From: Escherichia coli
Lineage (GTDB): Bacteria; Pseudomonadota; Gammaproteobacteria; Enterobacterales; Enterobacteriaceae
Reading direction: 5' to 3' (one strand)
Length of the DNA stretch: 64,000 nt
Assembly: GCF_003334355.1 (NCBI RefSeq)
Contig: NZ_QOWP01000009.1
Positions 2,804-2,959 of the stretch are shown here, one piece after another. The position numbers were made by a program, and so were the translations under genes. The first letter of the stretch is position 1. Each line of letters begins with the position of its first letter. The notes beneath the pieces were generated by a model. It saw nothing but the letters and a program-made list of their open reading frames with translations. It made no database searches and had not been told where the DNA came from.

Positions 2804-2959
2804 TTAAGATATCAGAATCTTATGATTCGGGTAAAATTCTAAATAAATCAACATGTCATTAAAATCATCATAGCCATTAGCTATTTCGACTAAAATAGAG
2901 ACTACATGTCTTCGGTCCATCTCACTTAAGGAGTGTAGTTCCGTTGTAAGTTTTTCCAT
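2804..2959 (-). CDS. hypothetical small protein, 51 aa (MEKLTTELHSLSEMDRRHVVSILVEIANGYDDFNDMLIYLEFYPNHKILIS); possibly the small gene annotated yrhD in K-12
   Basis: Hand-translated from the minus strand of the AT-rich spacer between the immunity ORF and yrhB; below the 60-aa cutoff of the ORF track. No convincing Shine-Dalgarno; an in-frame GTG lies 3 codons upstream. Name yrhD is from memory of a 51-aa gene at this locus and is uncertain. Confidence 0.35.
   Translation of the reverse strand: MEKLTTELHSLSEMDRRHVVSILVEIANGYDDFNDMLIYLEFYPNHKILIS

Follow-up and report, generated by a model that had tools for sequence, protein, structure and literature searches.

We conclude, with a probability of roughly 70%, that yrhD, a 51-codon open reading frame (ORF) in an Hcp-toxin island of Escherichia coli, is what remains, without a start codon, of an orphan immunity-type gene and not a functional small-protein gene. 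The ancestor would have been a gene of about 84 codons from an uncharacterised family of small helical proteins, and yrhD would be its 3' three-fifths. The E. coli copy would stand as an orphan behind the yhhZ-yrhA pair and ahead of the orphan yrhB, it would have lost its start codon, with the annotated ATG being an internal Met, and its sequence would now be evolving like the surrounding non-coding spacer. We infer that this copy was once functional and is now inert. Features of the locus are collected in Table 1, in which positions refer to the window, that is, the whole 64,000-nucleotide stretch of E. coli DNA that was analysed, unless another contig is named.

Table 1 Coordinates of the yrhD locus in the window, and of the partner toxin domain on the contigs that carry homologues of the relic.
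Feature	Position	Strand	Remarks
ggt	540-2282	+	
yrhB	2320-2604	-	Imm35 (PF15567, E = 4.6e-23)
yrhD ORF	2804..2959	-	156 nt; corresponds to residues 34-84 of the putative ancestral family frame
Codon 39 of yrhD, TAT here	2843..2845	-	TAG in the allele of 476 complete genomes
Codon 23 of yrhD, TTA here	2891..2893	-	TAA in the allele of 460 complete genomes
Stop-free in-frame extension upstream of the yrhD ATG	2960..3058	-	Homologous to the N-terminal ~33 residues of the 80-84-aa family
Full stop-to-stop frame, 91 codons	2807..3079	-	Probable decayed orphan-immunity-type gene, with yrhD as its 3' part
SD-like AAGGA (3046-3042) with in-frame ATC (3034-3032) and ATT (3031-3029)	3029..3046	-	
yrhA	3054-3548	-	NCBIfam NF038335, YrhA family; intact
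Promoter-like TAGAGA-18-TATATT	3112..3141	-	Inside the 3' end of yrhA
yhhZ/tssD	3545-4723	-	Primary toxin of the island; Hcp (TIGR03344, residues 1-147) with a His-Me (HNH) nuclease toxin fused at its C-terminus
Copies of the partner toxin domain	L019 about 1100-1501; L020 1-423; L021 about 620-1020; L024 1-153; L027 8661-9011		80-aa gene always next

The ORF itself, which the first-pass annotation had described as an unlisted 51-codon frame on the minus strand, was confirmed as drawn: it opens with ATG at 2959, closes with TAA at 2806-2804 and encodes the 51-aa translation MEKLTTELHSLSEMDRRHVVSILVEIANGYDDFNDMLIYLEFYPNHKILIS, and in the ORF listing a GTG at 2968 lengthens it to 54 codons (54 aa). 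It lies in a spacer of 449 bp (2605-3053) with a GC content of 30.5%, compared to 51.5% across the window. The description "unlisted" holds for the length-filtered ORF track only, since the frame is annotated in K-12 MG1655 as yrhD (b4612, YP_009518820.1, "uncharacterized protein YrhD"; Swiss-Prot P58037), and it is thus an already known ORF and not a new small protein. Synteny with K-12 agrees, as b4612 likewise lies between yrhA and yrhB, next to ggt; the spacers of K-12 and the window are one nucleotide apart, giving A24V in YrhD. The same 156-nt CDS is annotated as yrhD in a genome 100% identical across the spacer, and the annotation is carried in thousands of RefSeq E. coli genomes. By megablast, the spacer matched 3,809 of the 5,426 complete E. 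coli genomes, where the feature beneath is 'yrhD: protein YrhD', and it was at least 99% identical throughout in 2,785 of them.

The length of the ORF was considered as evidence of coding and dropped after a shuffle test: among 2000 dinucleotide shuffles of the spacer, the chance of an ORF of at least 51 codons was 0.26, and of at least 54 codons 0.21. A word-indexed protein search with the 51-aa ORF returned only E. coli copies and miscalled variants. Two entries that might have passed for divergent YrhD homologues (P0013 and P0014, on L006-L009) were rejected, as they differ by C>T changes only and lie on contigs full of tiny ORFs; their proteins are not reproduced by table 11 translation, and they seem to have been assembled from E. 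coli reads after bisulfite conversion. Likewise, three matches labeled 'Escherichia plasmid' in PLSDB (H96-H98) are chromosomes of 4.8-4.9 Mb carrying the same chromosomal locus.

Published mentions of yrhD are few. One study lists it as a hypothetical gene of 156 bp in which 68 genomes show zero substitutions (PMC3575317), a result explained by the near-clonal state of the region, whose spacer is at least 99% identical in the 2,785 genomes counted above. A genomic-SELEX study of RpoD names yrhD as the gene beside an RpoD/H-NS site (PMC3946193), and other mentions use it as a landmark beside IS1E. In the ribosome-profiling and proteomic papers and supplements that were searched, we found no mention of yrhD.

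The island is ordered yhhZ - yrhA - yrhD - yrhB, the last encoding an Imm35 protein. YhhZ has been classed as a His-Me/HNH nuclease polymorphic toxin (PMC5714182); the Hcp-ET type to which it belongs has been reviewed, and orphan immunity genes near E. coli Hcp-ET toxins have been described (PMC6730261). yrhA is presumed to be the immunity gene cognate to YhhZ, and yrhB is a second orphan immunity gene of the island, without an adjacent toxin. The content of the island varies between genomes. In some, yrhB lies directly beside yhhY and yhhZ, yrhA and yrhD are all absent (strain SWYH.B349aT, L026 6038-6920), and so yrhD moves together with the yhhZ-yrhA cassette; one further genome has an IS1 element in place of yrhD-yrhA-yhhZ (strain PKF8, L005 3001-3820). 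Of the 5,426 complete genomes, about 1,600 have no yrhD spacer at all.

Several further features of the region were recorded alongside. The start of yrhB (2604; 2600-2635, minus strand) shows no Shine-Dalgarno (SD) pairing (+1.8 kcal/mol), and the only nearby promoter-like hexamers reach just to its ATG; the yrhB mRNA may be leaderless, have a very short leader or depend on upstream read-through. Between the convergent ggt and yrhB lies a strong terminator-like hairpin of 10 pairs followed by a T-run (2290-2313, plus strand), which probably serves both genes. The RyhB small RNA (Rfam RF00057, 83 bits) was found at 5599-5663 (plus strand), between yhhY and yhhX as in K-12. Another protein-like open stretch, in a different frame of the spacer (2640-2760, minus strand; NISRYLFRDYILSDELFSKPAFNNIFDEDERVFAQCITQE), stops about 36 nt short of the start of yrhB. 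It was considered as a remnant of a toxin belonging to yrhB and set aside when an exhaustive protein search matched only itself (P0025).

The start signals of yrhD are poor. The pairing energy with the anti-SD sequence was +0.1 kcal/mol at both the ATG and the GTG, compared with -5.3 kcal/mol for yhhZ and -6.4 kcal/mol for ggt, in keeping with the first-pass remark that a clear ribosome-binding site is absent. The missing SD is weak evidence when taken alone, because the accepted gene yrhB also lacks one. The only SD-like motif in the spacer is the AAGGA at 3046-3042, whose dG of -5.6 kcal/mol is the spacer minimum and which lies 7 and 10 nt upstream of the in-frame ATC and ATT codons. This motif sits within what would be the ancestral coding region, it reads AAGGT or AAGAT in other alleles, and a dG of -4 kcal/mol or lower is reached at about 7.5% of spacer positions. 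As for transcription, the hexamer pair TAGAGA/TATATT is the one listed upstream of yrhD in the RpoD genomic-SELEX study (PMC3946193). Promoter-like sites in the region did not exceed chance (6 found, 5.1 expected from shuffles), and the promoter and terminator scan predicted no terminator between yrhA and yrhD.

Upstream of the annotated start, the reading frame continues. The full stop-to-stop frame of 91 codons (3079-2807) begins within the 3' end of yrhA, and its first 37 codons, that is, all those ahead of the GTG at 2968, contain no ATG, GTG or TTG. We searched 1.84 billion representative proteins by phmmer, using as query the 91-codon frame joined to the other protein-like stretch of the spacer, and obtained a single match outside E. 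coli, an 80-aa protein (P0026; whole-library E = 5.8e-4). In BLASTP, the yrhD frame and P0026 shared 25 of 64 residues without gaps, in an alignment that opens at P0026 residue 2, 31 codons upstream of the yrhD ATG, at the codon abutting the yrhA stop. Profile and tblastn searches widened the family to further metagenomic proteins (P0027, P0028, P0030, P0031 and P0032) and to members on Ralstonia megaplasmids, a Rahnella aquatilis plasmid (84 aa) and a Pantoea dispersa plasmid (82 aa). These proteins of 80-84 aa align end to end with 84 E. coli codons, and the stop codons nearly coincide.

The relationship is specific to this frame. Among the 1,854 open frames of the window, an HMM built from six non-E. 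coli members scored the frame at 2807-3079 with E = 8.8e-15 (next best, 0.92), and one built from nine non-E. coli members with E = 2.1e-16 (next best, 4.7). Taken alone, the 40 residues upstream of the ATG still reached E = 0.006 with an HMM from which E. coli sequences had been left out. Homology to the family spans 3055-2807, and the codon equivalent to the family Met1 is CAT (3058-3056), which abuts and overlaps the yrhA stop codon. The Met annotated as the start of YrhD is the one found in most family members (AV.AME.L). In an AlphaFold model of the 84-residue frame (pLDDT 75, pTM 0.64), which has four helices, this Met is residue 34, in the middle of helix 2, and a 51-aa product would therefore be a truncated fold. 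Neither Pfam nor NCBIfam gave a match at E ≤ 0.001 for the 54-aa ORF, the 84-aa frame or any family member; a PDB sequence search with P0026 found nothing, and Foldseek of the four-helix model against the PDB returned only matches with E ≥ 3. Matches in Burkholderia glumae with E of about 1 were dismissed as chance.

In other bacteria, the 80-aa gene recurrently accompanies toxins. In five metagenomic contigs (L019-L022 and L024) and in Ralstonia, the 3' end of a gene encoding a toxin domain either overlaps it, five times by 11 nt, or lies flush against it. The partner C-terminal domain, of about 130 aa, is conserved (...KVTWVDENASMS...RFDGLDDGVLIDRK...ITNITVKVV) and is carried on scaffolds that differ, namely Gly/Ala-rich repeats with FNRELHENE, or LLYNLL, a Ralstonia copy being truncated by IS5; one domain on varied N-terminal scaffolds is the modular pattern of polymorphic-toxin C-terminal domains. 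We found no relative of this domain in Pfam, in NCBIfam or among PDB sequences, and its AlphaFold model (pLDDT 44) was too poor to classify it. The PD-(D/E)xK-like look of its 'DG...LIDRK' segment is no more than an impression.

Other members are orphans in contact-dependent inhibition or two-partner-secretion toxin arrays, where no cognate toxin domain adjoins them. On one metagenomic contig (L023), a toxin end bearing a deaminase-like HAE...PCxxC motif comes first, then a 127-aa gene and the family member, and after these a TPS-domain protein and a TpsB-like gene. In Rahnella, it comes after a 9-kb gene of the filamentous-haemagglutinin type, a deaminase-like module and the partner gene of that module. 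In Pantoea dispersa, it closes an array that follows a 10.8-kb haemagglutinin-repeat protein and that also holds an immunity-63 protein (Imm63), VENN pre-toxin fragments, an endonuclease and a colicin-immunity-domain protein. The order of HAE…PCxxC toxin end, gene of 127-133 aa and orphan 80-aa member recurs as a module in unrelated hosts (L023 3-995; L028 5489-6334). On the Rahnella aquatilis plasmid, PLSDB labels a 300-bp hypothetical gene after a cdiA-like gene as 'OXA-678, 100% identity' (L028 1665-1964), a label that looks spurious given the size of the gene and its immunity-gene position. Since toxin-adjacent and orphan-array neighborhoods are the standard signature of cognate and orphan immunity genes, we infer from gene neighborhood that the family consists of putative immunity proteins that would bind and neutralise the cognate toxin domain. 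No such toxin domain was found near E. coli yrhD.

Within E. coli, the yrhD frame is broken in at least 936 of the roughly 3,800 complete genomes that have the locus. Allele-specific searches, which counted genomes within one mismatch of each allele, found 476 genomes with the TAG39 allele (TAT>TAG) and 460 with the TAA23 allele (TTA>TAA together with loss of the start), the latter including Nissle 1917 and the type strain ATCC 11775. All genomes sampled in the 95% identity band (RIVM_C037791, ESC818, E597 and EC1) carry TAG at codon 39, and all those sampled in the 92% band (ECONIH2, GABEEC10 and EcPF14) have ATA or GTA at the start (2957-2959) plus TAA23. RefSeq marks all seven of these disrupted copies as pseudogenes, the TAG39 copies as missing the C-terminus. 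Six of these genomes have intact copies of yrhA, yrhB and tssD; in EC1, the exception, yrhA and tssD are frameshifted. The two disruptions of yrhD are independent, each fixed in a large clade, with the neighboring genes staying intact. One allele also carries a TAA ahead of the annotated ATG, just upstream of the AAGGA motif. The 51-codon ORF is intact in about 2,850 genomes, which carry the K-12/window-type alleles or the P0008 allele.

The substitution pattern points in the same direction. Alleles differ from the window at 2-12 sites of yrhD each, spread evenly over codon positions, with 0-1.5 synonymous changes per comparison; dN/dS was at least 1.6 where definable, a value made imprecise by the few substitutions per comparison, and that of yrhA and yrhB was 0.07-0.56. 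The divergent intact allele (P0008 type) differs at six sites, all six non-synonymous, with five amino acid changes. Divergence amounts to 3-8% in yrhD and 3-11% in the non-coding flanks. Together, the stops and start loss, the dN/dS of at least 1 and the flank-like divergence indicate that the reading frame is not kept by purifying selection. The yrhD substitutions appear neutral, and the sequence drifts like non-coding spacer.

These results bear on the two possibilities raised in the first-pass annotation, that the ORF might be the remnant of an orphan immunity cassette or a genuine small protein. The former is supported by the end-to-end homology to an 80-84-aa family encoded beside toxin domains and in contact-dependent inhibition (CDI) arrays, and by the lack of a start at the homologous position; the latter is unsupported, there being no SD and the frame being broken in at least 936 genomes. 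Nor is the 51-codon ORF the natural unit, as the relic runs about 100 nt further upstream. Against the coding status that had been left uncertain, stops and start loss are tolerated in those same genomes and no translation signal was seen, and the proposed Ka/Ks and conservation check spoke against coding as well, with the frame disrupted in about a quarter of genomes. The suggested HMM and tblastn comparison gave a divided answer: no Pfam or NCBIfam immunity family matched, while an unclassified immunity-like family of 80-84 aa and the E. coli annotation yrhD were both found.

The roughly 2,850 genomes with an intact ORF count against the relic reading, as does an upstream frame that is stop-free in most alleles; the latter could mean that decay is recent or that some translation persists from a non-canonical start. 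The intact genomes, about 2,850 of the 3,800 with the locus and the divergent allele among them, would fit a genuine protein of 51 aa (or 54 aa), a truncated and neo-functionalised immunity derivative working in the intact lineages and lost secondarily elsewhere. We consider such a protein unlikely: disruption arose twice independently and each time became fixed in a large clade while the neighbors stayed intact, the two intact alleles differ at six sites, every one of them non-synonymous, and divergence of the ORF keeps pace with that of the non-coding DNA on either side. Transcription of yrhD is probable, since yrhA precedes it on the same strand and no terminator is predicted between the two, and an RpoD-binding site has been reported upstream (PMC3946193); however, the ORF has no SD, and the literature searched yielded no evidence of its expression. 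Although RefSeq and the K-12 annotation retain yrhD, its product would begin halfway through helix 2, in a unit of four helices.

A longer product has been weighed for the window- and K-12-type alleles, in which a frame of about 76 codons would be translated from the ATC or ATT and yield a working orphan immunity protein. AAGGA, the strongest SD-like motif of the spacer, at -5.6 kcal/mol, stands 7 and 10 nt ahead of these codons, and the upstream frame is free of stops and still recognisably homologous to the family. ATC and ATT are, however, very weak initiators in E. coli. The motif, moreover, is absent from other alleles (AAGGT, AAGAT) and could be chance, since about 7.5% of spacer positions reach a dG of -4 kcal/mol or lower; one allele has a stop just upstream of it, and this product, too, would be abolished by the codon-23 and codon-39 stops of 936 genomes. 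We judge this reading highly improbable. Even harder to credit is the idea that the frame arose by chance in AT-rich intergenic DNA bound by H-NS, that it descends from no gene and that any role it has is non-coding, for instance as leader or promoter of yrhB. The length of the ORF is indeed expected by chance in the spacer (P = 0.21-0.26), promoter-like sites are no more numerous than in shuffles and H-NS is marked at the position (PMC3946193), but homology of the full frame to an independent protein family is far beyond chance. yrhB also exists without the spacer in some genomes, so the spacer is not required as its leader, and no Rfam family matched (a search of 2250-3650 gave only sub-threshold chance matches of the snoRNA type). 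A present-day non-coding role is compatible with the relic reading; the lack of gene ancestry is not.

For annotation, our results suggest that yrhD is better regarded as the pseudogenised fragment of an orphan immunity-type gene than as a small-protein candidate. The locus illustrates the gain and erosion of orphan immunity genes in E. coli Hcp-toxin islands. As a by-product, the unclassified 80-84-aa family of Ralstonia, Rahnella, Pantoea and metagenomes and its partner toxin domain, which have no Pfam model, are candidates for catalogues of polymorphic toxins. It is very unlikely, in our estimate, that the relic of the K-12 type is still alive, its 51-aa tail or a product of about 76 aa from ATC/ATT being made at a low level and protecting against a CDI or type VI secretion system (T6SS) toxin with the 'RFDG...DRK' domain; if true, yrhD would represent a new immunity family, as an orphan immunity gene that still works and is expressed from a non-canonical start.

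Compared with K-12, the yrhD of the window is alike in locus, strand and 156-nt ORF and differs by one residue (A24V); its neighborhood differs in that yrhA is split by IS1E in K-12 and intact in the window. In size and intergenic-looking location, yrhD resembles the validated small proteins of E. coli (~50 aa or fewer), but those have translation evidence and usually a conserved frame, whereas yrhD has no SD and a frame broken in at least 936 genomes. With the Pfam immunity families (Imm35, represented by YrhB, and SUKH/Smi1-type, YrhA-like), the 80-84-aa family shares small cytoplasmic proteins, the same island and the same presumed role; it differs in giving no significant match to the Imm35, SUKH or colicin-immunity models and is currently unclassified. 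A further parallel is with the orphan immunity genes of T6SS islands and of CDI cdiA-CT/cdiI arrays. Unlike working genes of that kind, yrhD has no start at the homologous position and no SD and is disrupted in many lineages; like them, it lies downstream of a primary pair, yhhZ-yrhA, and beside the orphan yrhB, and its homologues are encoded directly after a toxin C-terminal domain and in the orphan arrays of Ralstonia, Rahnella and Pantoea.
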